IMG/VR virus record: IMGVR_UViG_3300037067_005176
Coordinates: 125,081 to 189,080 of that record
DNA: 64,000 bases
Source of the DNA: a virus
Taxonomy: Duplodnaviria; Heunggongvirae; Uroviricota; Caudoviricetes
Reading direction: 5' to 3' (one strand)
Position numbers and translations under genes: made by a program
Notes under the pieces: model-generated
The model's input: the letters and a program-made list of their open reading frames with translations, nothing else
What the model was told of the DNA's origin: nothing
Databases searched by the model: none
Part shown: positions 7,995 to 47,830 of the stretch, in pieces
How positions within the stretch are numbered: position 1 is the first letter of the stretch
Layout of the letters: each line of letters starts with the position of its first letter

Positions 7995-8720
7995 ATGAGA
8001 TTTAAGGAATTATATTTGATGGAAACCCCAATTGCTTATGACGATGAAACATCTGAAAAAGTTGGAACCATTGATTCTATTTCAAAAACTAAATGGGGTA
8101 AGGCTCCATCACCAAAGATTGGGTTATATGATTTGAAATATTGGGTTAATAATGCAATACATGAAAATATATTAACCGATATAACATTAGGAACAGGTGC
8201 AACAAAGATATGTAAGTTTAATGAAGATGAAAAGACTGTTTTTAAATATAATTGGAATCTTTCTTCATACGGAAATCAAATTGCAAAAGAAGTTAAAATT
8301 TATAAAAAGTATTCATCTAAATATGAATCAATTCTTCCTAAATTTTATAAATGGGGCGATCATTGGTTAATCCAAGAATATGTTGAGCCTTTGAAATATA
8401 ATGAATCAGTTTTTAAGAAAGTTACTGGCATTGATTGGAATGAATGGGACTCATATTGTTCAGTGTTTCATTTAGCACAATTATCATGGAATGAATTTCA
8501 TCATCCAAAAGATACAATATTAAGTACAATTAAAAGTCAAATGAAAAACGCCTCAGAATCATTGATTATTAAAATTAATAAAATTTTAAATAATAAAAAT
8601 CTTTATAAAATTATTGAGTTTTGTTTTAAAACTAAAGTAAGTATAAATGATATGCATGAAGGAAATTTAGCATTTACTAAAAATCGTAAAACAATAAAAA
8701 TTATCGACTTTGGTATTTAG
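7995..8720 (+). CDS. Hypothetical protein (starts MRFKELYLME)
   Basis: RBS gggagagg upstream of ATG 7995. The ORF track begins 12 nt earlier. Confidence 0.5.
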   Translation: MRFKELYLMETPIAYDDETSEKVGTIDSISKTKWGKAPSPKIGLYDLKYWVNNAIHENILTDITLGTGATKICKFNEDEKTVFKYNWNLSSYGNQIAKEVKIYKKYSSKYESILPKFYKWGDHWLIQEYVEPLKYNESVFKKVTGIDWNEWDSYCSVFHLAQLSWNEFHHPKDTILSTIKSQMKNASESLIIKINKILNNKNLYKIIEFCFKTKVSINDMHEGNLAFTKNRKTIKIIDFGI

Positions 8721-8732
8721 GAGAATTTATTA

Positions 8733-9200
8733 ATGAGATTTAAGGAATTGTATGAATCAAAAAAATTTGGCAAAGATTTGGCACCTTGTAAAAATCATTC
8801 CTATTTTGATATTAACTGTGATGATTGTGTTGACGTTAATGATATCAACATTGACGATTTTGATGATGATTGGGATGATGATTGGGATGATGAATGGAGC
8901 GCAATATCTGAAAATGACATACTTGATGAAAGCGTCAAAAAGAAATATGTCATTAGAAACAACAAGAAAGTTATTAAATATGTAACTAATAGGCCTCTAA
9001 CTAGAATTGAAATGCAAAATGGACGTCCTAAGGAAATCAAGATGATGCCTCAGGAAATATTAAAACGCAAAAGAGCCCAAAAGCGAGCTCAACTTCGTAG
9101 AAAATCCAAAATGCCAAGAATGCAAATAAAGAGAAAACGATCTATTAAAAAGCGCAAAATGATGGGTTTACCTTCAATGTTTAAAACACAAAGGAAGTAA
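8733..9200 (+). CDS. Bipolar charged protein: acidic DDW repeats (DDDWDDDWDDEW) plus Lys/Arg-rich C-terminal tail
   Basis: Composition read from the translation. Starts MRFKELYE. Confidence 0.5.
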   Translation: MRFKELYESKKFGKDLAPCKNHSYFDINCDDCVDVNDINIDDFDDDWDDDWDDEWSAISENDILDESVKKKYVIRNNKKVIKYVTNRPLTRIEMQNGRPKEIKMMPQEILKRKRAQKRAQLRRKSKMPRMQIKRKRSIKKRKMMGLPSMFKTQRK

Positions 9201-9201
9201 T

Positions 9202-9543
9202 ATGAGATTTAAAATGATATATGAAGGTGGTAGGTCGTATGATGTTATATCAGCTGGGTATAAATCATTTGAAGATTTAGCAAAAGATTTAAAAGACTTC
9301 CAATCAAAAGCTTCGATTTTAATTAATAAAATTTCAACTGACATTGGTAATTTAAAAAATAAATTATTAAATTACAACTATCATTCAAAATGGAGCTCTA
9401 AAAATGATAATATCGCTAAATATAAAATACAAAAACTTGAAGAAAAGAAAAAGAATTGGATTGATAAATTGAATAAGTTAAATGATTCAAGCAATTATTC
9501 AAATTTAAAGAAATGGATTAAGGAAGTTGAAATAGAACTTTAA
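9202..9543 (+). CDS. Hypothetical protein (starts MRFKMIYE)
   Basis: 113-aa ORF adjacent to the previous stop with an RBS. Confidence 0.45.
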   Translation: MRFKMIYEGGRSYDVISAGYKSFEDLAKDLKDFQSKASILINKISTDIGNLKNKLLNYNYHSKWSSKNDNIAKYKIQKLEEKKKNWIDKLNKLNDSSNYSNLKKWIKEVEIEL

Positions 9544-9607
9544 TGACTTATATTTAAAAGAGAGTTCCTTTGGTTTAAAAGAGTATCAAGATGCTATTTG
9601 GGCAATT

Positions 9608-10253
9608 ATGAACCAGCTTAATACTGATCTTGAAACAATAAAAAAGAAAGAAGCTGAGTTTCATCCTACTTGGAAACATACTAATGAAAAAAATAAAGAA
9701 AATGAAATGGATTCTGTAAAAAAGAAAATAAAATTTTATAATTACAGATTGAAAAATTCTAAATCCATTGATGAGAAAACTTTAAAGCTTTGGATTGATG
9801 AATTCCACAAAGAATACAACTATAAGTGATTCATATTTAGGTAGTGGATTAATTTTAAATAGAGCTATTAAGAAATATGGAAGAGAAAATTTTAATAGGG
9901 AAATACTTGAAATAGTTTCAAAAGATACTTGGCAAGAACGCGAAAAACATTGGATTAAAGACACTGATGCTATTAATAAAGGCTATAATATTATGTTTGG
10001 TGGCAATGGTGGAAATACGATTACTAATCATCCTGATAAAGCTATAATACTTGAAAAAATAAGTAAAAAATTAAAAGGTAGGATTAGCGAAAAACACGGG
10101 GTTAAAAATACAAAATTAAAAGGGCGTGTTAGTCCAACAAAAGGTATGAAAATGTCACCGCAATTTTTTAAATATATGAGCGTACTTCAAACAGGAATAG
10201 GTAATAGTTTTTTGGAAAACATCATTCTGATAGCTTTATTAAAAATAGAATAG
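9608..10253 (+). pseudogene. GIY-YIG endonuclease relic split across two frames (9608..9829 and 9795..10253)
   Basis: 9795..10253 aligns with 6540..7358 from SYLGSG..KYGRENFNREILE onward but lacks the GIY half-motif. The upstream ORF ends ...KFYNYRLKN (a GIY-like sequence) in another frame. Confidence 0.4.
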
Positions 10254-10395
10254 AAAATAATCCAAATTCTAAATGTGTAAATTATTTCGGTATTGTTTAT
10301 AAATCAAAATCAAAATGCATGAAGGCAAATAATATTACACGACATAAATTTGATAATTTGATTAAAAATGGTGTTATACACTATATTGAGGGTTT

Positions 10396-10884
10396 ATGAA
10401 ATTTAGAGACGTTTATAATAAAAAGTATGAGGTTTGGTGCGATATGGATGGCGTTTTGGTTAACTTTAAAAACGCTATTGAAAAATTAGGATTAACTATA
10501 AAAAAACTTGATGATGAACCGAATAAAGCTTGGCCAATCATTGCAAAGGCTGGTGAAAATTTTTGGTCGCAAGCTCCATGGACGAATGACGGTAAAGAGT
10601 TGTGGGATTATGTAAAGAAATATAATCCAACAATTTTATCAGCGCCTTCTCAAGCTAATTCATCAAAGACAGGTAAACGAATTTGGGTGAAAAATGAACT
10701 GGGCCAAAATGTTAAAGTTATTTTATGTAAAGCCGCAGAGAAACAACAATACGCAAATTATAAATCTATCCTTATTGATGATATGGAAAAGAACATAGAT
10801 CAATGGGTTGCGAATGGCGGTGTTGGAATTTTGCATAAGAGTGCTAAGGAAACTATAAAGAAACTACAAGATCTTGGACTTTGA
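10396..10884 (+). CDS. 5'(3')-deoxyribonucleotidase-like HAD protein (NT5C family; CDMDGVLVNF)
   Basis: N-terminal DMDGVL motif of NT5C-type nucleotidases. Confidence 0.5.
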   Translation: MKFRDVYNKKYEVWCDMDGVLVNFKNAIEKLGLTIKKLDDEPNKAWPIIAKAGENFWSQAPWTNDGKELWDYVKKYNPTILSAPSQANSSKTGKRIWVKNELGQNVKVILCKAAEKQQYANYKSILIDDMEKNIDQWVANGGVGILHKSAKETIKKLQDLGL

Positions 10885-10887
10885 CGC

Positions 10888-10941
10888 ATGAATTACCAAA
10901 GAATACATGCGAAAAACGAAGTCAACTTGGTCGTAATATAA
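10888..10941 (+). pseudogene. Footprint of an HNH homing endonuclease 5' end (MNYQRIHAKNEV...*)
   Basis: atgaattaccaaagaatacatg matches the 5' ends of the HNH genes at 14152 and 30377 (atgaactaYcaaagaatatatgatgc). Confidence 0.4.
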
Positions 10942-10968
10942 ATAATTCAAAATAATTAGAGAGGTTTT

Positions 10969-11256
10969 ATGAAAGGCGATTTTATTAAATATTTAAGAGA
11001 AGGTTCAATGTCCTTTGGATACACTACTGTTGACTGCGGTAGAGATGGCGATAATCATAGGCATCAATTTAAAGTTGATAAACAAGGAAACGGTATAACG
11101 TCCGAAAACGGTGACTCTGTTCACACGCACATGATAGTGATGGGTCAAGTACATTACGCAAATGGTCACCAACATTCGATGGGTCCTGCAATGGAAGACC
11201 AATCTGAATTCAGAACTGGCGATGAATTTGGTAATGATCTTGGCGTACATCACTAA
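10969..11256 (+). CDS. His/Gly/Asp-rich hypothetical protein (possible metal-binding)
   Basis: 95-aa ORF with RBS agagagg. Multiple H clusters (HRHQF, HTHMIVMGQVHYANGHQH). Confidence 0.45.
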   Translation: MKGDFIKYLREGSMSFGYTTVDCGRDGDNHRHQFKVDKQGNGITSENGDSVHTHMIVMGQVHYANGHQHSMGPAMEDQSEFRTGDEFGNDLGVHH

Positions 11257-11265
11257 GAGGTGAAA

Positions 11266-11910
11266 ATGAAACTTAAAGACTATATTAATGAGCATTTCAT
11301 TTTTGAAAAGACTTATAATGTCAAGTCTTTGACAAAGCAATTGACAAATTATTACAAGATACCGCAAAGTTCAAATCCAGGTGAAATTATGCAGCGTGCG
11401 GGTTCAATTGATAATGCATTAAGTATGATTCTTAAATCTGGTGATACATTTACAGCCGATGAAGAAATTCGGAACCCGGAAACTGGCGAAGTTTATTTTG
11501 CAAAAGGATTTCATAAATCAGGTAAAGACATAGCAATTGCAAACAAGAAAACCAAACAAAAGTATAAAAATATTATACGTCAAGCTAATAAAGATGTAAG
11601 TAAAGCTGAGGTTCCTCCTTTGTTTAAAAATGCAAAAGATATTTCGGACTTTGCATCTTTCTATGATATTGAAGAAAAATCATTAAGCAATATTTACGAT
11701 CATTCTGAAGAAGGCACTTCAGATTATGATTTTGATGTTTCAGTTCCTGTAAAAATTACTCGTAATGATAAGTATAAAATGAGTACTGAAGATAAAGCCA
11801 ATATGAAGAGATTGGTGACTCTTTTGAAAAAGTCGCATAACAATATTGATTTCGCTGGTGAAATGGCTCAAGGTGGAAAATTTTATACAATTGATGTGTA
11901 TTTGAAATAG
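11266..11910 (+). CDS. Hypothetical protein (starts MKLKDYINE)
   Basis: RBS aagagg 5 nt upstream of ATG 11266. The ORF track uses GTG 11260. Confidence 0.5.
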   Translation: MKLKDYINEHFIFEKTYNVKSLTKQLTNYYKIPQSSNPGEIMQRAGSIDNALSMILKSGDTFTADEEIRNPETGEVYFAKGFHKSGKDIAIANKKTKQKYKNIIRQANKDVSKAEVPPLFKNAKDISDFASFYDIEEKSLSNIYDHSEEGTSDYDFDVSVPVKITRNDKYKMSTEDKANMKRLVTLLKKSHNNIDFAGEMAQGGKFYTIDVYLK

Positions 11911-11921
11911 GAGATTTTACA

Positions 11922-12335
11922 ATGGCATTTACGAATTATTTAAAAGAAATGGATGAAGCGCGTTTTGGTGAGATTGGTGAATTTGTGTTTGATTTGTTAT
12001 TCTTTTCAGTTCAAGTTCATGCTTGGCATTTGCAGACAGGATCGTATGCAGCTCACATGGCATTGAATGATCTTTATGATGGTTTGCCAGGTTTGGCTGA
12101 TGATATTGCTGAAGCATTAATAGGCATTAATAGAAAGCTAGTTCTTCCTACAAAGCCTTATACTTTTATTCAAGATAATACCGCAGACACCAACGGAATT
12201 GTTGCAGCAATAAATAGTTTCAAAAGTAGAGCGACACAGCTTACAACCAACGATGAAGTTGGAATCGGTAATACTTTAGCTGATGTCGTTTCGTTGCTTG
12301 ATAAAACAATTTATAAATTATCAAATCTTAAGTAA
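11922..12335 (+). CDS. Dps/ferritin-like protein
   Basis: VQVHAWHLQTGSYAAHMALNDLYDGLPGLADDIAEAL matches the Dps HxWNV.G..F..H.....Y.EL...D..AER pattern. Confidence 0.45.
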   Translation: MAFTNYLKEMDEARFGEIGEFVFDLLFFSVQVHAWHLQTGSYAAHMALNDLYDGLPGLADDIAEALIGINRKLVLPTKPYTFIQDNTADTNGIVAAINSFKSRATQLTTNDEVGIGNTLADVVSLLDKTIYKLSNLK

Positions 12336-12344
12336 AAGGATTTT

Positions 12345-13184
12345 ATGAGTTTTAAACAAAATTATTATGATACGTTGATATGCGAAGCAACAAAAAGACC
12401 TGCGTATGTTTATGCGTTTGATCCATCACGTACTCATATTCCATTAACAACGGATATGATTAGGCGTGTAATTGGCACTCCTAGAATAAAAGCATATCAT
12501 ATTACAGATTCAAAAGGATTTCAAAAATTACAGTCTCTGCAAGGAAAGAAATCTCAAATAAGTTGTTTTACTAATATTGAAGATTTAGCCGGTCAAATGT
12601 CTGGAGTTAATACTACAGGAGGTGTTCTTGTAAAATTGGATGCTGATGAAATTTTAAACACTGCGTTTGATTCATATTCGGTTGTTGATACTGGAGGGAG
12701 ACGTTGGGTTTCTACTGAAGAAATGCATGGCGGATTTCACACGAAGATTTCAAACATCAAAGAAAAAATTATAAAGAAGTTTCTTCAAAATAAAAAGAAC
12801 ATTCGTTCGTGGATTGAAAGACATAATGTCAAAATTCATTCGGATATGGAAAAGAAATTATCAAGCGATTTTCTTTTATTTTATGAACAAGTTTTGAATC
12901 ATCACGCTGTTGAGTTTCTGGAATCTTGTGATAAGTCTGATTTGTATAAAGCGTTGATTGATTTTCATAATGAAATTGAACCAATATTTGAAAAACATAA
13001 AGATGATATTATGAATCAAAGAAAATTCAAAAGCGGTTCAAATTACAATGAAGTGATATGCAATAATATAACAATAACTAAAGTATATGTTATGAAAAAC
13101 ATCGTGAAAGAATTTGAGGAAATAAATCCTGGGTGGAATCCTATCCAAGTTGATTCAAAATCGCTAAAGCTAATCAAATTATAG
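12345..13184 (+). CDS. Hypothetical protein
   Basis: 279-aa ORF with RBS aaaagga. Confidence 0.5.
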   Translation: MSFKQNYYDTLICEATKRPAYVYAFDPSRTHIPLTTDMIRRVIGTPRIKAYHITDSKGFQKLQSLQGKKSQISCFTNIEDLAGQMSGVNTTGGVLVKLDADEILNTAFDSYSVVDTGGRRWVSTEEMHGGFHTKISNIKEKIIKKFLQNKKNIRSWIERHNVKIHSDMEKKLSSDFLLFYEQVLNHHAVEFLESCDKSDLYKALIDFHNEIEPIFEKHKDDIMNQRKFKSGSNYNEVICNNITITKVYVMKNIVKEFEEINPGWNPIQVDSKSLKLIKL

Positions 13185-13191
13185 GAGTGTT

Positions 13192-13470
13192 ATGTCATTT
13201 AGTAATTATATAAAAGAAAAAACAGAAGATCATTCAAATAAGAACTTTGTTGCGATAAATATGGAACGTGAAGGTAAACCTGTTATGCTTACTTCAGGTA
13301 AAGAGTTGGAAAATACGACCGTTTTGTCTTGTACAAAAAATGCTTTAACTTATATTCATGTTGAGCACGATATTGCATCAATTGAACAAATAATTTTAAC
13401 ACCGCCAAGAGAAGTAACATTGCGCTTGGATGTTAATAAATTAAAAAATAATGTAAAACATATTAAATAA
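13192..13470 (+). CDS. Hypothetical protein
   Basis: 92-aa ORF with RBS taggag. Confidence 0.45.
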   Translation: MSFSNYIKEKTEDHSNKNFVAINMEREGKPVMLTSGKELENTTVLSCTKNALTYIHVEHDIASIEQIILTPPREVTLRLDVNKLKNNVKHIK

Positions 13471-13510
13471 TTTTTAAAATCTGGTTGACAAACAATCGGA
13501 TTTTTTATTT
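13471..13510 (+). terminator. Putative weak terminator hairpin with embedded TTGACA followed by T-run
   Basis: aaaatctggTTGACAaacaatcggatttttt. Imperfect stem, T7 run. Confidence 0.3.
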
Positions 13511-13622
13511 TTGTAGATGATCTGGACGCTCTAGATGAGTTGTAATATTCTTTATGTATCAATACTTACAGTAAAACAAACGAGATCTAAAAATGATCTA
13601 AATGAAAATAGGATAAACTATA

Positions 13623-14174
13623 ATGATAAAACTAAATCAAGACAAAAAACTGTTCTTTTTATCGGATGCTCATTTGATGCATGCGAATATCATCAAATAT
13701 TGCAATCGCCCATTCGCTGATGCACAGGAGATGACCGAAACAGTTATACGAAATTGGAATAAAGTTGTTACTGATGAAGATCAGATTGTGTTTTTGGGTG
13801 ACTTTATTTGTGGATGTAAAAATGCTAAAGAAACTTCAGAATACTTTTATGAGTGCCTGAATGGCGAAAAGCATTTCATCCGTGGCAACCATGATACCGA
13901 TGATAAGATGTCGGATAAGTTGAATTGGTATAAGAATGATGAGAACCTTTATAGAACTCACTACAAAGGTTATGATTTGGTATTAAGCCACTATCCTTTT
14001 GAGCGAAAACATTTTAAGCCGTTGGCTAATGCGATTTATATTAGTGGTCATACGCATGATACGGATTTGATTTATGATAAATATAATAAATGTGTAAATG
14101 TGTGTTGCGAAGCTGTAAATTATACACCCATTTTATTTGAAAATATTTTAAATGAACTATCAAAGAATATATGA
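13623..14174 (+). CDS. Metallophosphoesterase (calcineurin-like; DAH..GDF..GNHD..GHTH motifs)
   Basis: Ordered MPP motifs read from the translation. Confidence 0.6.
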   Translation: MIKLNQDKKLFFLSDAHLMHANIIKYCNRPFADAQEMTETVIRNWNKVVTDEDQIVFLGDFICGCKNAKETSEYFYECLNGEKHFIRGNHDTDDKMSDKLNWYKNDENLYRTHYKGYDLVLSHYPFERKHFKPLANAIYISGHTHDTDLIYDKYNKCVNVCCEAVNYTPILFENILNELSKNI

Positions 14175-14757
14175 TGCTATAATTGAACGCGCTAAACTAC
14201 GCGGGCTTAACAAGAAGCTTCTTGATGGCTATTTTGAACGTCACCACATCATTCCTAAATGTATGAATGGAACAAATAACAAAGATAATTTAGTTCTTTT
14301 AACAGCTCGTGAACATTATCTTTGTCATTGGCTACTTTGGAAAGCAAATAAAGAAAATTATAAGTTGTTTTATGCATATCATATTATGACAACCGTAAAA
14401 TCGTTTAAGTTATCGTCTAAACAATTTGAAATAATAAAATATGTTCAAAGAAATGTAATGAGCGTTTTAAAGAAAGGCAAAAAATTTAGTGCCACTCATA
14501 AAGAAAACATTAAAAGAAATCATTTCGATTGTTCAAATTGTAATAATTCATTTTTCGGAAAAATTCATTCAGAAGAATCGAGAGATAAAATAAAATTAGC
14601 GTGGGTTGAGAGAAGAAAAACACCGATGACAAAGGATGTTAAATTAAAACATTCCGAACAAAGTTTAGGACGAAAATGGTATCATAATAACAAAGGAAAT
14701 TGTATTTTTACAAAAGATGATGTTGATTGTAATACTTGGTATCCTGGTAGATCATGA
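14152..14757 (+). CDS. HNH homing endonuclease (ERHHIIPK...N...EH..CH)
   Basis: HNH motif. The 5' end overlaps the MPP gene stop. The same 5' sequence is reused at 30377 and 10888. Confidence 0.7.
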   Translation: MNYQRIYDAIIERAKLRGLNKKLLDGYFERHHIIPKCMNGTNNKDNLVLLTAREHYLCHWLLWKANKENYKLFYAYHIMTTVKSFKLSSKQFEIIKYVQRNVMSVLKKGKKFSATHKENIKRNHFDCSNCNNSFFGKIHSEESRDKIKLAWVERRKTPMTKDVKLKHSEQSLGRKWYHNNKGNCIFTKDDVDCNTWYPGRS

Positions 14758-14775
14758 CACAAAATTAATTTCAGA

Positions 14776-14859
14776 TATAAATAATCGTATAATAAACGTA
14801 TCATGTGAAGCGGCGAACTATACGCCGATTTCATTTGAAAAAATTTTGGAGGTGTTTAA
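14776..14859 (+). other. Relic duplicate of the 3' end of the MPP gene (encodes ..NVSCEAANYTPISFEKILEVFK*), left downstream of the HNH insertion
   Basis: Translates to a near-copy of the C-terminus of 13623..14174 (CVNVCCEAVNYTPILFENILNELSKNI) and carries the RBS ggaggtg of the next gene. Confidence 0.5.
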
Positions 14860-15180
14860 ATGAAATTTAAAGATTATGTAAAAGAAAGTCTTTTGCTTGA
14901 GAAGAAAATTACAATCGGCGGAAAGGAGTTCAATTCGGCTAAAGAAGCTGGACTTTATCTTGGATCAATCGGTAAAACTGCAAAAGAGATTATGAAGCTT
15001 ATTGATACAACCGAATCAATGGCCACCTATTATGCAAGAGTTGGATCAAAGATTAAAAGTTCTGCTCCAAAAACTGCTTCGCTTCCAGTTGTTGCGAAGA
15101 CTACAGGAACTTTAACCGGCACAAAAACAATTGCTCCTGGTGCACGGCTTGGGCAAAAACACAAGAATTTAAGTCGGTAA
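14860..15180 (+). CDS. Hypothetical protein, N-terminal-domain paralog of 47333..47830 (GGKEF..DTTE.MA)
   Basis: Strong similarity to 47333 over aa 1-70. RBS ggaggtg. Confidence 0.55.
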   Translation: MKFKDYVKESLLLEKKITIGGKEFNSAKEAGLYLGSIGKTAKEIMKLIDTTESMATYYARVGSKIKSSAPKTASLPVVAKTTGTLTGTKTIAPGARLGQKHKNLSR

Positions 15181-15257
15181 AAGATGTTTCTGATATTCTT
15201 GGACCTCGCGGAAAGTCAAGTGAAGAAGCCGTTATTGCATTCCTTAAAAAGAATAAG

Positions 15258-15491
15258 ATGAGTGATGATCTTATGGCAAATGTTATTGGTTATTACGGTA
15301 TTGATGGTGAAGATTATTTTGATGATAATGGAAATTGGAAAGATACATCAAAGAAAACTGAATCTAAGAAGACTGTACCCAATAAGAAATTCGCTGATAA
15401 GAAAACATTTTCAGAAGATAAACCGTTTATAAAGCATCGTCAGGATAAAAACTTCACACTTGTTGTAAAAAATAAAAAACAACGCCTTTAG
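15258..15491 (+). CDS. Hypothetical protein; possibly the frameshifted C-terminal part of the 14860 gene (frame open from 15057)
   Basis: Frame 0 is open 15057-15491 overlapping the 14860 ORF. GIDGEDYFDDNGN resembles YHDGTGDF..GDEYGN in the single-ORF paralog 47333. Confidence 0.35.
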   Translation: MSDDLMANVIGYYGIDGEDYFDDNGNWKDTSKKTESKKTVPNKKFADKKTFSEDKPFIKHRQDKNFTLVVKNKKQRL

Positions 15492-15747
15492 TATAAATGT
15501 TGGTCCAACTATTGGCGGAGATAAATGACGTACACATTATTCGGGCGAAGCCATTTCAGATAATAACGCTGGTATTATGAAAATTATAAATTCATATTTT
15601 CCAAACACTGTAAAGGAAATGAGTGGTGGCGGATTGTTTGGAAACATTTCCGATGAGAATCCTGATAAAGCTAAAATAGAAAAAATGTATAATGAACTTG
15701 ACACATATTTGGATGAATTGCGAAGCAAAGTAAAGAAATAAATTTGA

Positions 15748-15779
15748 AGACCGGTTGACAAAACAGCCGGTCTTTTTTA
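15748..15779 (+). terminator. Rho-independent terminator (gaccggTTGACAaaacagccggtc + TTTTTT), also containing a TTGACA -35-like hexamer
   Basis: GC stem plus T6. Confidence 0.6.
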
Positions 15780-15808
15780 TTTTTGTTTTTTACTTTGGAG
15801 ACAAAATA

Positions 15809-16444
15809 ATGCTTATTAATATTGAAGTTCCTGATAAGAATGATAACGCTAAAACTATCGCACTTGTTCGTTATGCTATTGATCGAAGAGAAGAACCTAC
15901 AGCAGTTTTATTTGGTTGTTTTTCTCCATTCACAGGTCCAAACGGTCACGGACGAATGCTTCGTTTTGCTTTTGAAAACAACATAAAGAAGTTTGCAGTT
16001 GTGATGCCAACTAAGGATGATTCAAAAGACACTGATAGAAATATGTTTACCCAAGAACAACGACTTAAAATTGCAAAGATTGGCGCAAAAGAATGCGGAT
16101 TTGATGTTGATGTATTCAATGTTGAAACAACAAATCCTCTTGGTATGTTCAGAGAGATCGCAAGTAAGATCGCTAGACCTGTGTTGATTGTTGGGCCTGA
16201 TAGGAAGATTCAGTTTGAAAAGATGTTTTTAACATTCAGTAAAGAAAATAAATATATTACTGATCCTAACGAAAAGAATTTCGGTAAAGGTGAAATGTTA
16301 GGCATGATTGATAGAGGTGATGTTAACACTTCAGCTACCGATGTTAGAAATTCATTGAAAGAAAACAACAAAGCACAATTCATTCGCCTTACAGGCTATT
16401 CAAGTAAGATATATAAATATTTGAAAAGTTTAATAATGCAATGA
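15809..16444 (+). CDS. Cytidylyltransferase-like nucleotidyltransferase (GCFSPFTGPNGHGRML, an (H/T)xGH-type motif)
   Basis: HxGH-like motif of class I nucleotidyltransferases (NMNAT/PPAT/TagD family). RBS tttggagacaaaataATG at 15809; the ORF track starts inside the terminator. Confidence 0.4.
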   Translation: MLINIEVPDKNDNAKTIALVRYAIDRREEPTAVLFGCFSPFTGPNGHGRMLRFAFENNIKKFAVVMPTKDDSKDTDRNMFTQEQRLKIAKIGAKECGFDVDVFNVETTNPLGMFREIASKIARPVLIVGPDRKIQFEKMFLTFSKENKYITDPNEKNFGKGEMLGMIDRGDVNTSATDVRNSLKENNKAQFIRLTGYSSKIYKYLKSLIMQ

Positions 16445-16450
16445 GGCATA

Positions 16451-17380
16451 ATGCGATTTAAACAATTATTTGAAGCTGAAGAAACCGATAGCAACGAAAT
16501 GAATATAAAGGATGTGTTTAAGGTTAAGACAAAACATCCTTTAAACAAATTCGCTAAGCTCACCGTTTATGGTGTACTTAAAAAGTACGTCAAATCTGAG
16601 GATCTTGGAAAAGTTGCTGAAACGCTTGCATCAAGAAAGTTTAATCTTTCTCAAGGAACTCATTCAATTGACGATGCAATTTCTGATATTCCAGTTTCAA
16701 AAGATTTCTTTGAAGAGATTTACAACAAAAAGAAAGACAGGAATATGAATATGATGGGTCCTGGCGAATTGATGCTTTGGGCTATGTATTCAAACGTGAA
16801 TTTCAATCCTACAGCAGGCGATTTAATTATTGATGGAAAGGTTGTTGAAGTCAAAGCCGCAAGAGGACAATTTGGCGGTGATCCTAAGAAAGGATGGAAA
16901 TCTTGGTCTGATGCAAAAGAAAAAGTGAAGAAAGTAGCTGATGATTTGGATATTGATACAAAGGACTTGGATAAAAACAGAAGTTTGGTTCAGGCAAACT
17001 TACCATCATTATTTTCAATCATAAAAGATACTTTTGATTCAAAGAATAGCAAGGAAATATTTGATCTTGCGACTGCGCTTGTCAATAATGAATCCGCAAC
17101 AATCTTTACAACGCAATTGGAAAAATCATTAAAGAAAGCAAAAGATGCTAACGATGCTTGGCTGATGATGCTTGCGGTTCATTCTCAAATTTATCAAGCG
17201 AAGTATAAGTTTGAATATATTATAAAGTTCAATAGCACAAATAGAAAGTTCCCTCATTCTATAACTGTTATAAATCCTAACGCACATTCAATTGAAAGCC
17301 TCGTTGAGTTTTTCAAATCGAATAACATAAGACCTGAAGAATGGGCATCAACTCGCTCAGGTGGAATGGCTGCAAAGTAA
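16451..17380 (+). CDS. Hypothetical protein with possible PD-(D/E)xK nuclease core (GPGEL...GDLIID...VEVKA)
   Basis: E...D...E-V-K order consistent with the restriction-endonuclease-like fold. Starts MRFKQLFE. Confidence 0.3.
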   Translation: MRFKQLFEAEETDSNEMNIKDVFKVKTKHPLNKFAKLTVYGVLKKYVKSEDLGKVAETLASRKFNLSQGTHSIDDAISDIPVSKDFFEEIYNKKKDRNMNMMGPGELMLWAMYSNVNFNPTAGDLIIDGKVVEVKAARGQFGGDPKKGWKSWSDAKEKVKKVADDLDIDTKDLDKNRSLVQANLPSLFSIIKDTFDSKNSKEIFDLATALVNNESATIFTTQLEKSLKKAKDANDAWLMMLAVHSQIYQAKYKFEYIIKFNSTNRKFPHSITVINPNAHSIESLVEFFKSNNIRPEEWASTRSGGMAAK

Positions 17381-17400
17381 AAATAAAATTATTTCTTAAA

Positions 17401-17428
17401 ATCCGGTAAAACCTACCGGATTTTTTTA
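17401..17428 (+). terminator. Rho-independent terminator (atccggtaAAACCtaccggat + T7)
   Basis: Perfect 8-bp stem plus T7. Confidence 0.65.
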
Positions 17429-17459
17429 TTATTGTTGAAACTTTAAAAAGGAATTTTTT

Positions 17460-18575
17460 ATGGGCGGAAATGTAAAACTTCCAACAGGTGAAAGAGCTGA
17501 AAAGATTAACATCGCTCTTATGAATATCGATGCGTTTAACGATTTCAAAAGAGAATTGCGCAATACATTTCATGACTTCAATATTATGTTTGAAAGAACG
17601 TACAATTATCGTTTATGGCCTAAGTATGATATTTTGTTTTCAAATCAAAAGTTATTTTCAGGCTCAACACGATTGATGTTTAAAAAGTCTTTCAGTCAAT
17701 TCGCTTTATATAAACCAAGCGTCGGCGATATTGATATTCAAGTTCCAAACGAATGTATGACAGATCTTAAATCGTTTCTTTTGAATAACCGCAATATGAT
17801 GTTTGGACACTTCAAATATCTTGGCTTTACAAATACTGGGATGCAACTTAATTGCCTTTTTAAAAGCCCTAAAGAATATAAGATGTTCTCTAAGTATGTT
17901 CAGATTGACTTTGAGGGAACTGAATATGTAAATGACGAACCTTCGGAATTTTCAGCTTTTGGACATTACAGTTCTTGGACTGATGTGAAGGCCGGGATTA
18001 AAGGATTTGCAAACAAGTATCTTTTGAGATCGCTCGCTGCAGGTATTGCAAAGGCTGAAGTTGTTATCATCTCAAGCAAGACAGGTAAACCTATTAAATC
18101 AAAGCCGATGGAAAATCTTTTTGGTTTTTCGGTTGATAAAGGATTTAGAGAAAAGATAAAACCAAATTATGATGAGAACGGAAATCATATAATGATTGAT
18201 AATAAGTATTCATATTTTAAGATTGAACCTAAAGATGCAGTTTATGATAAAGATTTGAGTTCAATATTTGAAAAGATCTTTGATGCTTTACCAAGGGATG
18301 GTGAAAAGTATTCTTTATTCTCATTCATTAGAACACTTGATCTTATGAGTACTTATTGTGCAGATTCAATTGTTGAATCGGTGTTTGAAGATTTTGTTGA
18401 ATTACTTTGGGGTAAGGAAGCACAACGGATTGAGCGTGATGATCCGAAGCTTGATGAAGAGATAAAGAACAAGATGTATAAAGCATTTGTTATAAAGTTT
18501 CCAATTCTTAAAGCGAAGAACAAAAGCATTCTTGTTGTGAAAAAATCCTTTTATGAAAATTATAAAATTTCGTAA
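17460..18575 (+). CDS. Hypothetical protein (371 aa)
   Basis: Long ORF. GS...VGDIDIQV is loosely Pol-beta-NTase-like but not convincing. Confidence 0.5.
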   Translation: MGGNVKLPTGERAEKINIALMNIDAFNDFKRELRNTFHDFNIMFERTYNYRLWPKYDILFSNQKLFSGSTRLMFKKSFSQFALYKPSVGDIDIQVPNECMTDLKSFLLNNRNMMFGHFKYLGFTNTGMQLNCLFKSPKEYKMFSKYVQIDFEGTEYVNDEPSEFSAFGHYSSWTDVKAGIKGFANKYLLRSLAAGIAKAEVVIISSKTGKPIKSKPMENLFGFSVDKGFREKIKPNYDENGNHIMIDNKYSYFKIEPKDAVYDKDLSSIFEKIFDALPRDGEKYSLFSFIRTLDLMSTYCADSIVESVFEDFVELLWGKEAQRIERDDPKLDEEIKNKMYKAFVIKFPILKAKNKSILVVKKSFYENYKIS

Positions 18576-18582
18576 AAACCAT

Positions 18583-18611
18583 TGACATTAAAAACAATTT
18601 ACTAAATTTGA
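18583..18611 (+). promoter_or_regulatory. Candidate sigma70-like promoter (ccaTTGACA, weak -10)
   Basis: TTGACA at 18583-18588, poor -10 (atttga/taaatt). Confidence 0.3.
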
Positions 18612-18643
18612 TTCGTCAAACAATTAACAAAAGGTTCTGCTAA

Positions 18644-18973
18644 ATGACAACTCCTGCTACTCTTGCAACAAAGCTCGAAAACATCATCGATCTTCATGCT
18701 GTTCAACATCGTACAACTAAGTTCAGTTATCCTTTTACATCCGACGGTCGTCCTGCTCGTTTCTGGGAAATCTGTTGCTTTGTAGCTGATCGAAAAAACA
18801 CGGCAATCTCCGACATCAATCGCAGCTTTTATGGAAGCATGAAGTCCGATTGGCATAGTGTAATTCTTTATCTTTGCAATGTTGGTTTGCTTTCTCGCCG
18901 TGATGGAGTAATTCGTCCAGGCCATAAACTTGAACAATACCGTCGCACTATTATTGCAGAGATTAATGAATGA
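18644..18973 (+). CDS. Small winged-helix-like protein with C-ending codon bias (probable highly expressed regulator)
   Basis: GC and codon usage differ from neighbours (ctc, atc, cgt, tcc). The antisense ORF 18602..18997 is taken as an artefact. Confidence 0.45.
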   Translation: MTTPATLATKLENIIDLHAVQHRTTKFSYPFTSDGRPARFWEICCFVADRKNTAISDINRSFYGSMKSDWHSVILYLCNVGLLSRRDGVIRPGHKLEQYRRTIIAEINE

Positions 18974-18988
18974 TATAAATATTTTTAT

Positions 18989-19547
18989 GAAATTCAAAAC
19001 ATTGTATGAATCGCTAAATAATATTGAAGCTTTACAAAAGGTGATTTACTCAGGGACGTCACCTGTCTATGTTGCTACTGCAGGTATACAAGGAAGCGGA
19101 AAATCAACATTTGCTAAAGAGAACTTCAAAACTATTGAAATACTTGATCTTGATGAAATCAATAAAGATATTTCAAATGGTGATATGGAAGCGTTTCAAA
19201 GAAATAGATCAAAAGCAATTTCAAAGAAGAATGAGATGCTTAGAGATTTGTTTAAGAAAAGAAAATCATTTATTGATGCAGGTACTGCAGCCAATACTCA
19301 ATCTCTGTTGAAGAAACTTACTTATGCAAAATCTTTAGGATACACAACTGCTGTAGTGTATGTGAATATTCCAATAGAAGTTGCAATTGAAAGAAACTTA
19401 AAACGAATTGAAAGCGGTTCTCATGGAGTTCCCATTGAACGTGTTCAAGAAATTATAAACCGTACAGATATGAATGTTAGACAAACTATTAAAGAAATAA
19501 AAGACAATGCTGATCTTGTTGATTTCTTTATTGAAAAAGGACTATAA
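18989..19547 (+). CDS. P-loop kinase (Walker A GIQGSGKST; AAA_33/polynucleotide-kinase-like)
   Basis: Walker A GxxGSGKST near the N-terminus. Starts MKFKTLYES. Real start likely ATG 18989, downstream of the ORF-track start. Confidence 0.5.
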
Positions 19548-19548
19548 A

Positions 19549-21481: not shown

Positions 21482-21488
21482 GGTATTG

Positions 21489-22064: not shown

Positions 22065-22105
22065 TCATCAATATAAATAATTAAAATTTTAATACGAGGT
22101 TCAAA

Positions 22106-22576: not shown

Positions 22577-22604
22577 TGACTCTAAGTTTTAAATAAACAC
22601 ATAG

Positions 22605-32852: not shown

Positions 32853-32874
32853 TATTTAAAACAAAGGAATGATT

Positions 32875-41729: not shown

Positions 41730-42602
41730 ATGGGAATTATTTATAAGTTAATTTCACCAAGCGGGAAAATTTACATTGGAAAAGCGAATGACTTTGATAC
41801 GCGAATGAAAGGACATCTGTATTGTGCAAATAAAGGTAGAAAGAACGCATTATACGAATCAATAAGAATGCATGGATTTGATTCATTTAAAAAGATTATT
41901 ATTGATTGTGAAGATATTCAAAGCGTTTTAAATGACAAAGAAAAGTTTTGGATAAGCCATTACAAATCAAACGAACGCAAGTTCGGTTATAATATGACTG
42001 TTGGCGGAGATGGTGGCGATACACGAAAAGGATTATCAAATGATAAGTTGAATGAAATTAAACAAAAAGCAAAACAAAGATGTGCTGAAAGAAATCCAAA
42101 TAGAAGTCATTTGATAGAAGTAAAACAAAAAATATCCAAATCGATTTTAAAGCATCTTGAAACATTAAGTGAATCTGAAAAGCAAAGACGATTCAATATG
42201 ACTAAAAGAGGCTTGATTGAATATTATAAATCTGAAAAAGGTAAACTACATGCTTTAAGTACACAAGAAAGAATGAAAGGTGAAAAGAATCCACAATATG
42301 GACTTAAAGGGGAGCTTTCGCCAAATTGGAAAAGACAACAAAGCGAATATTGTAAAAGAAAAGCTTTTGAAACGCATAAAGGAAAACTTGTTTCAGAAAC
42401 TACAAAAAGAAAACAACAATTAAGGTGCGAAGAACGAAACTTGTTAATGAACATAAAGAATAATATTTCAAATGAAATATTTGAAACAAAAAATCTTTTA
42501 AAGTTTTGTGATGAACATAATTTGAATTACAATGTTATGTACAATAAGTTAAAAGGCGCGACATCAAGAACTTTAAAAGAATGGGAATTCATTGAGGTAT
42601 AA
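41730..42602 (+). CDS. GIY-YIG homing endonuclease with NUMOD repeats
   Basis: GIIYKLISPSGKIYIGKAND...R...H. Multiple NPN.S..K.KIS repeats. Confidence 0.75.
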   Translation: MGIIYKLISPSGKIYIGKANDFDTRMKGHLYCANKGRKNALYESIRMHGFDSFKKIIIDCEDIQSVLNDKEKFWISHYKSNERKFGYNMTVGGDGGDTRKGLSNDKLNEIKQKAKQRCAERNPNRSHLIEVKQKISKSILKHLETLSESEKQRRFNMTKRGLIEYYKSEKGKLHALSTQERMKGEKNPQYGLKGELSPNWKRQQSEYCKRKAFETHKGKLVSETTKRKQQLRCEERNLLMNIKNNISNEIFETKNLLKFCDEHNLNYNVMYNKLKGATSRTLKEWEFIEV

Positions 42603-43430: not shown

Positions 43431-44162
43431 ATGAAAAAGAAATATGAATTAACCAAAGAGACCATTATTGTTGGTTCATCAACTCTATATAAAATCAAAG
43501 CTCTGATTGACATTCCTTCTAAAGATATTAAAAAAGGTGATCTAGGTGGATTCATTGAAAATGAATCCAATCTAAGTCATGAAAATACTTGCTGGGTCTA
43601 TGATAATGCATTGGTCTCTGGTTCTGCAAGAGTCTCTGGTAATGCAGGTGTCTCTGGTGATGCATCGGTCTCTGGTAATGCAAAGGTCTATGGTGATGCA
43701 TGGGTCTCTGGTAATGCAGAGGTCTTTGGTAATGCAAAGGTCTTTGGTAATGCAAAGGTCTATGGTGATGCAAAGGTCTATGATGATGCAAGAGTTTATG
43801 GTAATGCAGAGGTCTTTGGTTATGCAAATGTCTTTGGTAATGCAAATGTCTTTGGTAATGCATGGGTCTTTGGTAATGTATGGGTCTCTGATTCTGCAAG
43901 AGTCTCTGGTGATGCAGTTGTCTTTGATTCTGTAAAGGTCTATGGTAATGCAAAGGTCTATGGTAATGCAAAGGTCTATGGTAATGCAAGAGTTTATGGT
44001 TCTGCAAGAGTCTCTGGTAATACAAATGTCTATGGTGATGCAGGTGTCTTTGGTAATGCATTGGTCTATGGTAATGCAAAGGTCTTTGGTAATGCAAAGG
44101 TCTTTGGTAATGCAAAGGTCTATGATAAATTCACATTAACTGATGATGAAATTTTATGCTGA
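43431..44162 (+). CDS. Hexapeptide-repeat protein, family copy 2 (about 30 repeats; C-terminus ..YDKFTLTDDEILC)
   Basis: Same N-module and repeat type as 32875..33996. Confidence 0.65.
   Translation: MKKKYELTKETIIVGSSTLYKIKALIDIPSKDIKKGDLGGFIENESNLSHENTCWVYDNALVSGSARVSGNAGVSGDASVSGNAKVYGDAWVSGNAEVFGNAKVFGNAKVYGDAKVYDDARVYGNAEVFGYANVFGNANVFGNAWVFGNVWVSDSARVSGDAVVFDSVKVYGNAKVYGNAKVYGNARVYGSARVSGNTNVYGDAGVFGNALVYGNAKVFGNAKVFGNAKVYDKFTLTDDEILC
43600..44130 (+). repeat. 18-bp tandem coding repeat array
   Basis: ggtaatgcaaaggtctat-type units. Confidence 0.7.
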
Positions 44163-45962: not shown

Positions 45963-45984
45963 ACCAAAAAGGAAGAGACACAAA

Positions 45985-47019
45985 ATGAATGAAAAAAAAG
46001 AAAAGACATATTGTGTTTATGTTGGACGCTTTCAGCCTTGCCACTTGGCACATGTGAAGACAATTCAAAATGCTTTAGCGATCGCTGATGAAGTTTGTAT
46101 TATCATCGGCTCTTATCGCCAAACTCCTACGGTGAAAAACCCATGGACGTTTGATATGCGAGAGAAGATGATTCGCGCTTGCTTCAGCATTCAAGACAAT
46201 GAACGAATCAAAGTGGCTCCTATGCGAGACTATCTTTACAACGATAATACTTGGATCACTTCCATGTATGACATCATTGCAAAGATGACAAACAATTCCG
46301 AGAATGTTCAAATCATTGGACATAAAAAGGATAAGTCCACCGAGTATCTTGAATTCTTTCCATCCTGGACTTGGGTCCCTCAACCAAATTTCGACAACAT
46401 CAATGCAACAGACATCCGCATGGATTTGTTTACTCACTGTATGGTGAAAGAAACATCCGGCACTGTGCATCCTGAAGTTGTAAAACTTATTCACAATTGG
46501 AAAGCAGGCAACGAGCTCTTTACGAATCTTGTTGCTGAATTTGAATTTGTGAAGAAGTATCGTGAATCTTGGAAGGTTGCACCATATCCTCCAACATTTG
46601 TTACATCTGATGCAGTATGTGTCAAGTCTGGGCATGTGTTGGTAATCAAGAGAGGTATGAATCCTGGTAAAGGGCTCTTTGCTCTCCCAGGTGGATTTGT
46701 AAATCAAAATGAAGATGTTCGTACAGCATCTATCCGCGAGCTTCGAGAAGAGACTGGAAAATGGATGAGCGTTGATGATCTTGATGAAAAGATTGTTGCA
46801 GAACATGTCTTTGATCATCCTAAACGCGATCCTCGTGGTCGTTGCATTACACATGCGTTTTTGTTCAAGCTTAATGATAAAGGACCTCTTCCTTTAGTTA
46901 AGGCTGACGATGATGCAAGCGATGCAATTTGGATGCCGTTCTCTGATGTGATTGCAAGTGAAGAAAGCTTCTATGCTGATCATGCGCATATAATTTGTTA
47001 TTTTGTTAATAAGCTATGA
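45985..47019 (+). CDS. Bifunctional NMN adenylyltransferase / Nudix hydrolase (NadM-Nudix, NatV-like)
   Basis: N-terminal GRFQPCHLAH (HxGH-type NMNAT motif) and C-terminal Nudix box SIRELREETGKW. RBS aaaggaagag upstream of ATG 45985; the ORF-track start 45775 overlaps the upstream gene. Confidence 0.65.
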   Translation: MNEKKEKTYCVYVGRFQPCHLAHVKTIQNALAIADEVCIIIGSYRQTPTVKNPWTFDMREKMIRACFSIQDNERIKVAPMRDYLYNDNTWITSMYDIIAKMTNNSENVQIIGHKKDKSTEYLEFFPSWTWVPQPNFDNINATDIRMDLFTHCMVKETSGTVHPEVVKLIHNWKAGNELFTNLVAEFEFVKKYRESWKVAPYPPTFVTSDAVCVKSGHVLVIKRGMNPGKGLFALPGGFVNQNEDVRTASIRELREETGKWMSVDDLDEKIVAEHVFDHPKRDPRGRCITHAFLFKLNDKGPLPLVKADDDASDAIWMPFSDVIASEESFYADHAHIICYFVNKL

Positions 47020-47201
47020 ATAAGAAATACAAATTAACCAAAGAGACCATTATTGTTGATTCATCAACTCTATATAGAATAAAGGCTCTAAACGACATTC
47101 CTTCTTCTAATGTTAAAAAAGGTGATCTAGGTGGATTCATTGAAAATGAATCCAATCTAAGTCATGAAGGTTCTTGCTGGGTCGATCGCGATGTTTATTA
47201 A
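47016..47201 (+). pseudogene. Truncated hexapeptide-repeat gene: conserved N-module only (61 aa), repeat array deleted
   Basis: MNKKYKLTKETIIVDSSTLYRIKALNDIPSSNVKKGDLGGFIENESNLSHEGSCWV then stop. Confidence 0.55.
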
Positions 47202-47218
47202 TCGTCTTTAATTGATTT

Positions 47219-47249
47219 AAGATTCCCACCTTTCAGTGGGAATCTTTTC
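47219..47249 (+). terminator. Rho-independent terminator (gattcccacCTTTCAGgtgggaatc + TTTT)
   Basis: 9-bp stem plus T4. Confidence 0.6.
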
Positions 47250-47332
47250 AGTATATAAATAATCAAAACAATATTTAGTTGGATTTTGATGATATTGTAT
47301 AATGAATACAATAAATTTAGTATGAGGTTATA

Positions 47333-47830
47333 ATGGGATTTAAAGATTATATTTCGGAATCATTGATTATTACTGAAGCCAAAGTAAAAGTTGGCGGTAA
47401 GGAGTTTTCTTCAAAGCGTGAGGCAGCAATTGCGATGGCCAAAGCAGGGGCAACATTTCAAAAAATTATAAAAGCTGTTGATACAACCGAAAGAATGGCG
47501 AAACATTTTGTTTCAAAGTATGGAAATGAAAACAGAAACGGTATCACTCCTGCCACTAAAGGCCAACAGGCTCTTGATAAAGAAAATGCTGATCGTAAGA
47601 AAGAACAATCTTTAAAATTAACTAAGCATTTTAATTTGAAGGGGGCTAATCATATCAAATTAAAAGGTTACACCCATAATCTTCAAGCGATATATCATGA
47701 TGGAACTGGTGATTTTCCTAAAGGTTATGAAATTGGCGATGAATATGGTAACGAAATTTATACTGGTCCAGATAAAGAAAAAGCGATACGCCGCATTTTA
47801 AAACACAAAGAAACTAAAATCAAAAACTAA
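47333..47830 (+). CDS. Hypothetical protein, full-length paralog of 14860..15491
   Basis: MGFKDYISESLIITEAKVKVGGKEFSSK..DTTERMAKHF aligns with 14860. Confidence 0.55.
   Translation: MGFKDYISESLIITEAKVKVGGKEFSSKREAAIAMAKAGATFQKIIKAVDTTERMAKHFVSKYGNENRNGITPATKGQQALDKENADRKKEQSLKLTKHFNLKGANHIKLKGYTHNLQAIYHDGTGDFPKGYEIGDEYGNEIYTGPDKEKAIRRILKHKETKIKN

Follow-up and report, generated by a model that had tools for sequence, protein, structure and literature searches.

A recurrent N-terminal leader in a regA-linked gene island of a T4-superfamily phage resembles the capsid-targeting sequence of T4 internal head proteins

Described capsid-targeting peptides

The capsid-targeting sequence (CTS) that Mullaney and Black reportedly described in 1996 in the T4 internal proteins (IPs) IPI, IPII, and IPIII is the closest counterpart of the element examined here, a short N-terminal leader that recurs at the starts of 14 genes in a 64,000-nucleotide (nt) stretch of DNA from a virus of the class Caudoviricetes (IMG/VR record IMGVR_UViG_3300037067_005176, positions 125,081 to 189,080). 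This whole stretch is referred to below as the window, and its genes are named by the position of their first nucleotide. The leader is probably a T4-CTS-type capsid-targeting propeptide, equivalent to the one borne by T4's internal head proteins.

In T4 IPIII, 10 residues from the start are enough for foreign proteins to be packaged; residues 4 and 7 serve in targeting and residues 8 and 10 in processing, and the protease gp21 cleaves after L/I-X-E (PMC9026906). The T-even phages' internal proteins are otherwise diverse and have the CTS alone in common (PMC3012670). In the T4 record, with a slash marking the cut, the N termini read MKTYQEFIAE/A in both IPII and IPIII, MKTFKEFTST..ITE/A in IPI, MIDKDYIAE in Inh, MAKINELLRE/S in gp24, MLKEQLIAE/A in gp22, and MNEPQLLIE/T in gp21. 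An [L/I/M]-x-E leader opens the gp21 proteins of T4, of a cyanophage, of a Vibrio phage, and of a Campylobacter phage, and a small head-module protein of Campylobacter phage F341 begins with MYNYLKYVE. In T4, changing the E to D is reported to block processing without affecting targeting.

The leaders of the window share with the T4 IP signal a propeptide of about 10 residues after the start Met, targeting positions occupied by aromatic or hydrophobic residues, and an L/I-x-E gp21 site at the end; in both cases the carrier proteins are otherwise unrelated and the phage belongs to the T4 superfamily. A single pattern, ^M.{0,4}[FY].[DENQ][FYL][ILVYFM].?E, covers both sets, matching T4 ipII and ipIII, 6 genes of the window, 5 genes of the related locus L008, and 2 annotated genes of Vibrio phage phiKT1024, with no matches in 30 shuffles. 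Several differences set the window apart. Its leaders follow the consensus M[KR]F[KR]x[LYF][YIV](x)E, as opposed to MKTYQEFIAE; there are at least 13 carriers, as opposed to a handful in T4, most of them in one island after regA; several carriers are enzyme-like; and in relatives leaders as long as 18 residues occur and the leader can be internal in fusion proteins. The leader pattern also matches MLLEFKQFLYE, which begins at an internal Met close to the C terminus of T4 uvsW (L011 19211; the former uvsW.1 region), a match that may be due to chance.

The N termini of T4 Inh, gp24, and gp22 are likewise short and end in [L/I]-x-E, and that of Inh (MIDKDYIAE) almost matches the MRDYIAE start seen in L008. 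However, these are conserved structural or core proteins, whereas the carriers in the window are variable accessory proteins. In the giant phages phiKZ, 201phi2-1, and SPN3US, a gp21-related protease removes propeptides after Glu, and these propeptides, carried by many different packaged proteins, are thought to target the prohead (PMC5694885). They are mostly longer than 100 residues and end in A/S/G-x-E, in contrast to the 8 to 14 residues and the L, I, or V three residues before the cut in the window. A long propeptide of the giant-phage type was rejected on both counts, and a secretion signal was rejected because the leader has no hydrophobic core.

Leader genes of the window

The window contains 13 clear leader genes and 1 weak member (10396); 13 of these 14 genes lie within positions 7995 to 22064, directly downstream of regA, and the remaining one lies at 47333. 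The initial annotation had listed about 10 such genes. All of the listed ones are real, although 10396 is weak; nine of the starts are exact ATG codons with the motif, and the tenth ATG is at 18987 (MKFKTLYE), not at 18989. Four members, 10969, 11922, 12345, and 13192, had been overlooked and were found by a simple gene call and inspection of adjacent starts. The genes of the island and the outlying member are as follows, with lengths in amino acids (aa), a slash marking the predicted cut, and TATAAATA denoting the T4 late-promoter motif.

7554-7946, plus strand: regA, the T4 translational repressor (PF01818, 2e-22)
7995-8720, plus strand: leader gene 1, leader MRFKELYLME/T (7995-8024), 241 aa
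8733-9200, plus strand: leader gene 2, leader MRFKELYE/S (8733-8756), 155 aa
9202-9543, plus strand: leader gene 3, leader MRFKMIYE/G (9202-9225), 113 aa
10396-10884, plus strand: weak member, MKFRDVYNKK without Glu at the leader end, 162 aa
10969-11256, plus strand: leader gene, leader MKGDFIKYLRE/G (10969-11001), 95 aa, TATAAATA 32 nt upstream
11266-11910, plus strand: leader gene, leader MKLKDYINE/H (11266-11292), 214 aa
11922-12335, plus strand: leader gene, leader MAFTNYLKE/M (11922-11948), 137 aa, ferritin/Dps-like DUF5856
12345-13184, plus strand: variant leader MSFKQNYYDTLICE/A (12345-12386), 279 aa
13192-13470, plus strand: leader gene, leader MSFSNYIKE/K (13192-13218), 92 aa, MSFKDYIKE in L008
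14860-15180, plus strand: leader gene, leader MKFKDYVKE/S (14860-14886), 106 aa, TATAAATA 84 nt upstream, paralogue of 47333
16451-17380, plus strand: leader gene, leader MRFKQLFE/A (16451-16474), 309 aa, TATAAATA 39 nt upstream
17460-18575, plus strand: leaderless member of the 17460 family, start M/GGNV..., 371 aa
18987-19547, plus strand: leader gene, leader MKFKTLYE/S (18987-19010), 186 aa, TATAAATA at 18974-18981
21489-22064, plus strand: leader gene, leader MKFKSLYE/S (21489-21512), 191 aa, SWIM zinc-finger motif
47333-47830, plus strand: leader gene outside the island, leader MGFKDYISE/S (47333-47359), 165 aa, TATAAATA 79 nt upstream

The leader consists of a head, M-[KR]-F-[KR]-x-[LYF]-[YIV], and an [L/I/V]-x-E end, which overlap in the shortest versions (MRFKELYE). 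Residues of the targeting type, corresponding to residues 4 and 7 of T4 IPIII, are found as F or L at position 3 to 5 and Y, F, or L three residues on. The [L/I/V]-x-E end is present in 13 of the 14 genes; in 9 of these 13, the Glu is followed by S, G, A, or T. Leaders are 8 to 14 residues long, and all 14 stand at the starts of open reading frames (ORFs), most of which have Shine-Dalgarno-like sequences. The predicted mature carrier proteins have masses of 9 to 34 kDa and are basic in 11 of 13 cases.

The carriers differ in their domains. The C terminus of the 7995 product gives a weak protein-kinase-like match (Pkinase/ABC1, E ~4e-3, under the Pfam cut-off), 10396 encodes a 5'(3')-deoxyribonucleotidase-like HAD protein (phrog_2643, 7e-31), 11922 encodes the Dps-like protein, 18987 encodes a P-loop kinase (AAA_33/zeta-toxin-like), and 21489 encodes the SWIM protein. 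In the 8733 product, an acidic tract precedes a very basic tail. Domain searches of the remaining leader-gene products gave no match, no relatives of the 16451 product were found in PDB or PHROG, and PDB sequence searches with the 16451, 7995, and 17460 proteins returned nothing useful. The view that the downstream products are unrelated is thus borne out for most pairs, both by their distinct domains and by all-against-all BLASTP, but fails for the paralogues 14860 and 47333 (E 7e-17, with 47% identity across 59 aa). The next two BLASTP pairs are marginal, with E values of 3e-4 and 2e-3 and less than 27% identity, and a paralogous family was rejected on this comparison.

That the motif occurs far more often than expected by chance, as originally noted, is supported by the 24-nt pattern, the peptide patterns, and the shuffle tests alike. 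When 3 or fewer mismatches are allowed, the degenerate 24-nt pattern has 6 occurrences versus 0.03 expected from dinucleotide shuffles. Peptide pattern A has 5 matches in the six-frame translation, all directly after a start Met, and pattern B has 6, of which 5 are so placed; the expectation per 145 N termini is 2e-4 to 3e-4 from the composition of the proteome and ~6e-4 from the position-specific N-terminal composition. Any of three leader patterns is matched by 10 of the 145 genes, compared to a mean of 0.10 and a maximum of 2 in 2000 within-gene residue shuffles. Since these counts far exceed the expectations from shuffling and composition, AT-rich codon usage and a Lys/Phe-rich proteome, the trivial source that had been considered for the motif, do not explain it.

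Leader genes in related phages

Relatives were found by a search with the 371-aa protein encoded at 17460-18575, and three related loci, L008, L010, and L016, were read. The search also returned the identical protein on the 189,080-bp JGI contig from which the window comes. In each of them, as in the window, regA forms the upstream edge of a run of leader genes. In L008, the leaders are MRFKELYES, MRFKALYLKE, MGRFKTVYES, MKGDFLKYIKE, MKLKDYINE, VSFREYLIE, MAFKQYLKE, MSFKDFMNE, MSFKDYIKE, MRDYIAE (twice), MRFKQLFE, MKFKKIYES, and MNFKSLYES. Those of L010, which lies on a 202-kb contig with 39% GC, are MKFRDILDE, MRNFKEFYLQE, MGRFIDTYYE, MADTFKDFVKE, MADTFKEFLGE, and MKFKHLLNE, and those of L016 are MKNFKEFYFNE, MKWNEYLLE, MGSFKDYYLKE, MQFSDFIKE, MKFIDLLDE, MGWQEYLQE, and MKFTDLLNE. 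In phiKT1024, annotated genes start with MKFKQFLAE and MKFKEYLNE. Leaders are known from the lineages of the window, L008, L010, and L016, with single leader-type starts in phiKT1024 and Campylobacter phages.

The orthologues in L008 keep the leader at the same genes. The orthologue of 8733 retains MRFKELYES, that of 10969 begins with MKGDFLKYIKE, and that of 21489 begins with MNFKSLYES, whereas the weak 10396 corresponds to an L008 gene with the full leader MGRFKTVYE/S. The variant leader of 12345 is replaced by the start MLISE/ATKRPAY. Among the homologues of the Dps-like 11922 protein, 13 of 15 retain MAF[KT]xYL[KR]E or MSFKEYLKE before MDE; P0049 (56% identity) has a variant leader without the terminal E, and a 40%-identical homologue has no leader. 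The HNH endonuclease gene of the window sits where L008 has a leader gene with the MRDYIAE start, and both HNH copies of the window start with MNYQRIYDAI.

Close relatives of the window itself were not detected: megablast of positions 7900 to 22100 against the phage collection gave no match, tblastn of 16451-17380 against phages gave no match, and neither the 16451 nor the 17460 protein had a relative in scans of IMG/VR. An exact-pattern IMG/VR scan for ATGARATTTAARGANTTNTATGAA returned 6 contigs with one copy each and no array, which is not informative. The literature search turned up no paper on arrays of CTSs in T4-like phages that are distant from T4.

Leader gain, loss, and internal copies in the 17460 family

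The 17460 family offers a view of the leader as a separable part. Its mature N terminus, GGN, is invariant, and M/GGN is the direct start of the 17460 protein, of those most closely related to it, and of several distant members, among them that of phiKT1024. Thirteen other standalone members have leaders of 9 to 22 residues, for example, MRFKQIFENRKISDIITE/GGN, MRSFKDFYMTLNE/GGN, MLKGFIKYITE/GGN, and, in Campylobacter phages CP220 and IBB_35, MKLSELMFILE/GGN. Eleven of the 13 end in E directly before GGN, and in 10 of these 11 the third residue before the cut is L or I (ITE, LNE, LTE, LME, LLE, or ILE), P0031 having VDE instead. The two exceptions among the 13 are P0008, with LTC/GGN, and P0017, with LFE/GGN followed by a second GGN repeat. 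The leader is thus modular, but as a peptide tag that is either present or absent before a conserved N terminus.

In three fusion proteins of ~600 aa, an upstream cytidylyltransferase-like domain is joined to the 17460 family domain, and the leader is kept as an internal linker that has no start codon: ..SFASIYFNKLFE/GGN (with ..FNKLFE), ..LRFAQYYLIE/GGN, and ..SFNNFYYLINE/GGN. An internal copy cannot act as a translation-start signal, and therefore these linkers do not fit that role, but they do fit a linker cut by a protease. The cytidylyltransferase-like domain of the fusions is encoded in the window by a separate gene at 15809-16444.

One leader-bearing homologue of 17460, gene 1-56 of Campylobacter phage IBB_35, which starts with MKLSELMFILEGGN, has been found in purified virions by mass spectrometry with 17% coverage (PMC3322345, Table S2), and this phage has gp21, gp22, and gp23 (PMC3322345). 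The AlphaFold model of the 17460 product has a predicted local distance difference test (pLDDT) score of 94, and Foldseek searches with it gave weak matches to Pol-beta-like nucleotidyltransferases (E 0.01 or weaker).

T4-superfamily setting and late promoters

RegA, DenV, and the TATAAATA late-promoter motifs, taken from the sequence, place the window in the T4 superfamily. A tblastn search with regA matched 2336 phage records; where these name a host, it is one of T4-type phages, and the best matches, with ~45% identity, were in cyanophages. Further genes of T4 type in the window are those for DenV, the GIY-YIG homing endonucleases, RNA ligase, RtcB, a CCA-adding enzyme, and an NadR-like protein. 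All T4 relatives examined so far have regA, and gp21 (the prohead core protease), gp22, and gp23 belong to their core (PMC2993671). Because RegA and DenV assign this phage to a superfamily whose core includes gp21 and gp22, it presumably has its own gp21 protease and gp22 core.

In T4, the late-promoter consensus TATAAATA occupies positions -13 to -6 from the transcription start (PMC1524935). In the window, it is found at most 100 nt upstream of five leader genes, 10969, 14860, 16451, 18987, and 47333, which account for 5 of the 10 plus-strand sites (P ~1e-6; P = 0.003 among the 8 sites that are upstream of a gene). The motif as such is not enriched, with 14 occurrences versus 9 expected, and only its placement before leader genes is significant. 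Gene 10969 is the first of a tightly packed run that reaches 13470, so that four more leader genes, 11266 to 13192, lie behind its TATAAATA with gaps of ~10 nt before a terminator hairpin is reached at 13476. At 18974-18987, TATAAATA ends 6 nt before the ATG and there is no Shine-Dalgarno sequence; because of the T4 spacing rule, a late transcript would begin on the A of the start codon and yield a leaderless mRNA. L008 has AATAAATA at nearly the same place.

A predicted capsid-targeting propeptide

The probable capsid-targeting role of the leader draws directly on the motif itself, its N-terminal position, its conservation as a peptide, the [L/I/V]-x-E end, its gain and loss, the T4-superfamily membership, and the virion presence of one leader-bearing homologue in another phage. 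By analogy with T4, we infer four steps for this phage: binding to the core, cleavage, packaging, and ejection. Leader genes would be expressed late, at least in part. The head of the leader would bind the scaffolding core of the assembling prohead, which would enclose any protein that carries it. A T4-type prohead protease, the predicted gp21 homologue, would then cut after the Glu of the terminal [L/I/V]-x-E, and the mature protein, freed inside the head, would exit with the DNA at infection.

Several observations weigh against this assignment. No head module (gp20 to gp24) is found within the window, and a profile of four gp21 proteases, run against a large protein collection, gave 4447 matches, with none from this phage or from the 202-kb relative among the 120 listed. 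Only 5 of the 14 leader genes have a TATAAATA of their own, and 10396, one of the genes listed initially, has no terminal Glu. Some of the cargo (the 5'-nucleotidase and the P-loop kinase beside RNA ligase) resembles ordinary metabolic or RNA-repair enzymes and not obvious capsid passengers. Finally, the leader patterns were tuned after the data had been seen, which is offset by the shuffle tests and by the independent loci.

The best-surviving alternative, although unlikely, is that the leader is a peptide tag with another fate, such as a degradation or chaperone signal, or a signal for targeting to a different phage structure, in each case independent of the head core and the protease. Conservation at the peptide level shows that the peptide matters but not what binds it, and several cargo proteins look like cytoplasmic enzymes, both of which would suit such a tag. 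The leader, however, closely matches the experimentally defined T4 CTS and the gp21 cleavage motif, its junction of E with the mature N terminus is precise, the IBB_35 homologue is present in virions, and leader genes are associated with late-promoter motifs. All four of these points speak against such a tag.

Conservation as peptide or as nucleic acid

The initial annotation took the motif to be under selection and to mark a functional class of genes, with T4-like phages as the frame of reference, and this is upheld. Of the two mechanisms it proposed, a translation-initiation or downstream-box element and a short homology block for modular gene exchange analogous to PeSL-type signals, both of which would act on nucleic acid, neither is supported by the evidence. 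Nine orthologous pairs were compared between the window and the syntenic L008, which is 63% identical in one neighbouring gene. Leader residues 2 to 9 are 79% identical, compared to ~60% for the next 20 residues and 72% for the remaining protein. Thus, the peptide is conserved at orthologous gene starts, while synonymous codons have changed: 17 of the 57 identical leader residues (30%) are encoded by a different codon, and in 11266, 4 of 8 codons differ although all 8 residues are identical. Codon identity at identical residues is 70% in the leader versus 57% elsewhere, a higher value that is expected for two-codon residues (K, F, Y, and E) in a 32% GC genome. Any two leaders of the window have on average 14 of 24 nt in common; 7995 and 8733 share an exact run of 18 nt, and in no other pair does such a run exceed 13 nt. 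The codon changes between orthologues and the low identity among leaders therefore indicate that selection acts on the peptide.

Accordingly, an element acting at the mRNA level, whether an A/U-rich start region, a downstream box, or a site for a regulator such as the adjacent RegA, is quite improbable. Such an element would be in line with the A/U-rich sequence of the leader and its place next to the start codon, with the position of regA immediately upstream of the island, and with the somewhat higher codon identity in the leader than in the rest of the gene. Against this stand the frequent synonymous substitutions and a conservation that follows amino acid classes (aromatic, aliphatic, and Glu) out to codon 8 to 14. 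Furthermore, the length of the leader varies, yet its end always abuts the mature N terminus; the peptide is internal in the three fusion proteins, where no initiation occurs; and most genes of the window with good Shine-Dalgarno sites have no leader.

A short DNA homology block, serving mainly as a recombination site for swaps of gene cassettes in analogy to PeSLs, is highly improbable. It would account for the 14 direct repeats of the leader within 40 kb, the 18-nt run shared by 7995 and 8733, and the gain and loss of the leader in the 17460 family. The remaining leaders, however, have too little in common for a dedicated recombination cassette, given their mean identity and mostly short exact runs, and the element is coding and in frame, not intergenic, with conservation that tracks amino acid classes and synonymous changes between orthologues. 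The PeSL cassettes of T4-like phages resemble the leaders in being short repeated elements beside variable genes but are intergenic promoter-terminator hairpins conserved as DNA, whereas the leader is coding and conserved as peptide (PMC2839356, PMC4122927); two such hairpins are present in the window as separate elements. Occasional recombination between leaders may nevertheless take place. The hairpins are as follows.

13476-13512, intergenic: hairpin with TTGACA within the stem-loop, followed by a T-run
15746-15782, intergenic: similar hairpin, also with TTGACA within the stem-loop and a T-run after it
17398-17424: plain terminator hairpin after gene 16451

Because TTGACA lies in the stem-loop and a T-run follows, each of the first two hairpins can be read as a terminator plus a -35 box. 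This architecture is as described for the PeSLs of T4-like phages, with marginal statistics (2 copies versus 0.21 expected).

Extremely improbable is a diverged paralogous family or a coincidence that arises from the composition of N termini when a genome is AT-rich: the second residue in the proteome is most often Lys and 14860 and 47333 are true paralogues, but the carriers have distinct folds and domains (those of HAD, P-loop kinase, Dps-like, SWIM, and kinase-like proteins), there is no further significant pairwise similarity, and the shuffle and composition tests expect at most 0.1 genes where 10 are observed.

Implications for injected phage proteins

The phage factors that act earliest in the cell are the proteins injected along with the DNA; those of T4 include the restriction-enzyme inhibitor IPI* and Alt, a modifier of host RNA polymerase. 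If the leader is a capsid-targeting tag, the window provides ~14 candidate injected proteins, most of them without a known function, for a lineage known only from metagenomes, and suggests that the cargo sets of T4-like phages could be far larger and more enzyme-rich than that of T4. We see about even chances that the window comes from a deep-branching uncultured T4-like lineage in which an island of at least 13 capsid-delivered proteins (kinase-like, P-loop-kinase, Dps-like, and SWIM, among others) follows regA. The leader would then be a portable tag that makes any gene an injected cargo, gained or lost before a fixed mature N terminus and even serving inside fusion polyproteins as a linker for cleavage.

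If so, injected proteins could be predicted directly from metagenomic T4-like genomes. The leader could also serve in wider searches for cargo because it is short and recognisable in several distant T4-like lineages. Since it is established that diverse internal proteins of T4-type phages carry a CTS, the finding extends known biology and does not add a new mechanism. What is unusual here is the number of carriers (13 to 14), their clustering after regA across a metagenome-only lineage, the enzyme-like character of the set, and the evidence that the leader is gained, lost, and used internally.

Other features of the window

A second recurrent N terminus, MNKKYKLTKETI, is found in three copies of a beta-solenoid/bactofilin-like repeat protein (phrog_7964/5070; PF18836, PF04519), one of which is truncated to 61 aa. 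Unrelated phages, among them those of Streptococcus, Liberibacter, and Xanthomonas, carry scattered homologues of this protein, suggesting that the gene is mobile. These genes and the further features discussed below are located as follows.

32869-33996, 43431-44162, and 47016-47201: genes with the MNKKYKLTKETI N terminus
22913-23614: TnpB fragment, 233 aa, TTG start
6540-7358, 41730-42602, 14152-14757, and 30377-30637: free-standing homing endonuclease genes
13623-14174, 18987-20454, 27528-30380, and 48360-51760: genes of RNA-repair type
54565-55287, minus strand: QueC-like gene
57450-57812, minus strand: T4 DenV-like pyrimidine-dimer glycosylase

The TnpB fragment contains OrfB_IS605 and a Cas12f1-like TNB domain. 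The region around it (22600-26000) has a higher GC content (36 to 38%), a reversed GC skew, and small minus-strand ORFs, and may be a remnant of an insertion of the IS200/IS605 type. The homing endonucleases comprise two of the GIY-YIG family and one HNH/NUMOD3 protein with a truncated second copy.

The RNA-repair set consists of RtcB, the CCA-adding enzyme, two RNA ligase-like proteins, a P-loop kinase similar to polynucleotide kinase, and two metallophosphoesterases; no tRNA genes were found in the 64 kb. The QueC-like gene, which points to a possible 7-deazaguanine pathway, and the DenV-like gene both lie in a minus-strand block of small genes.

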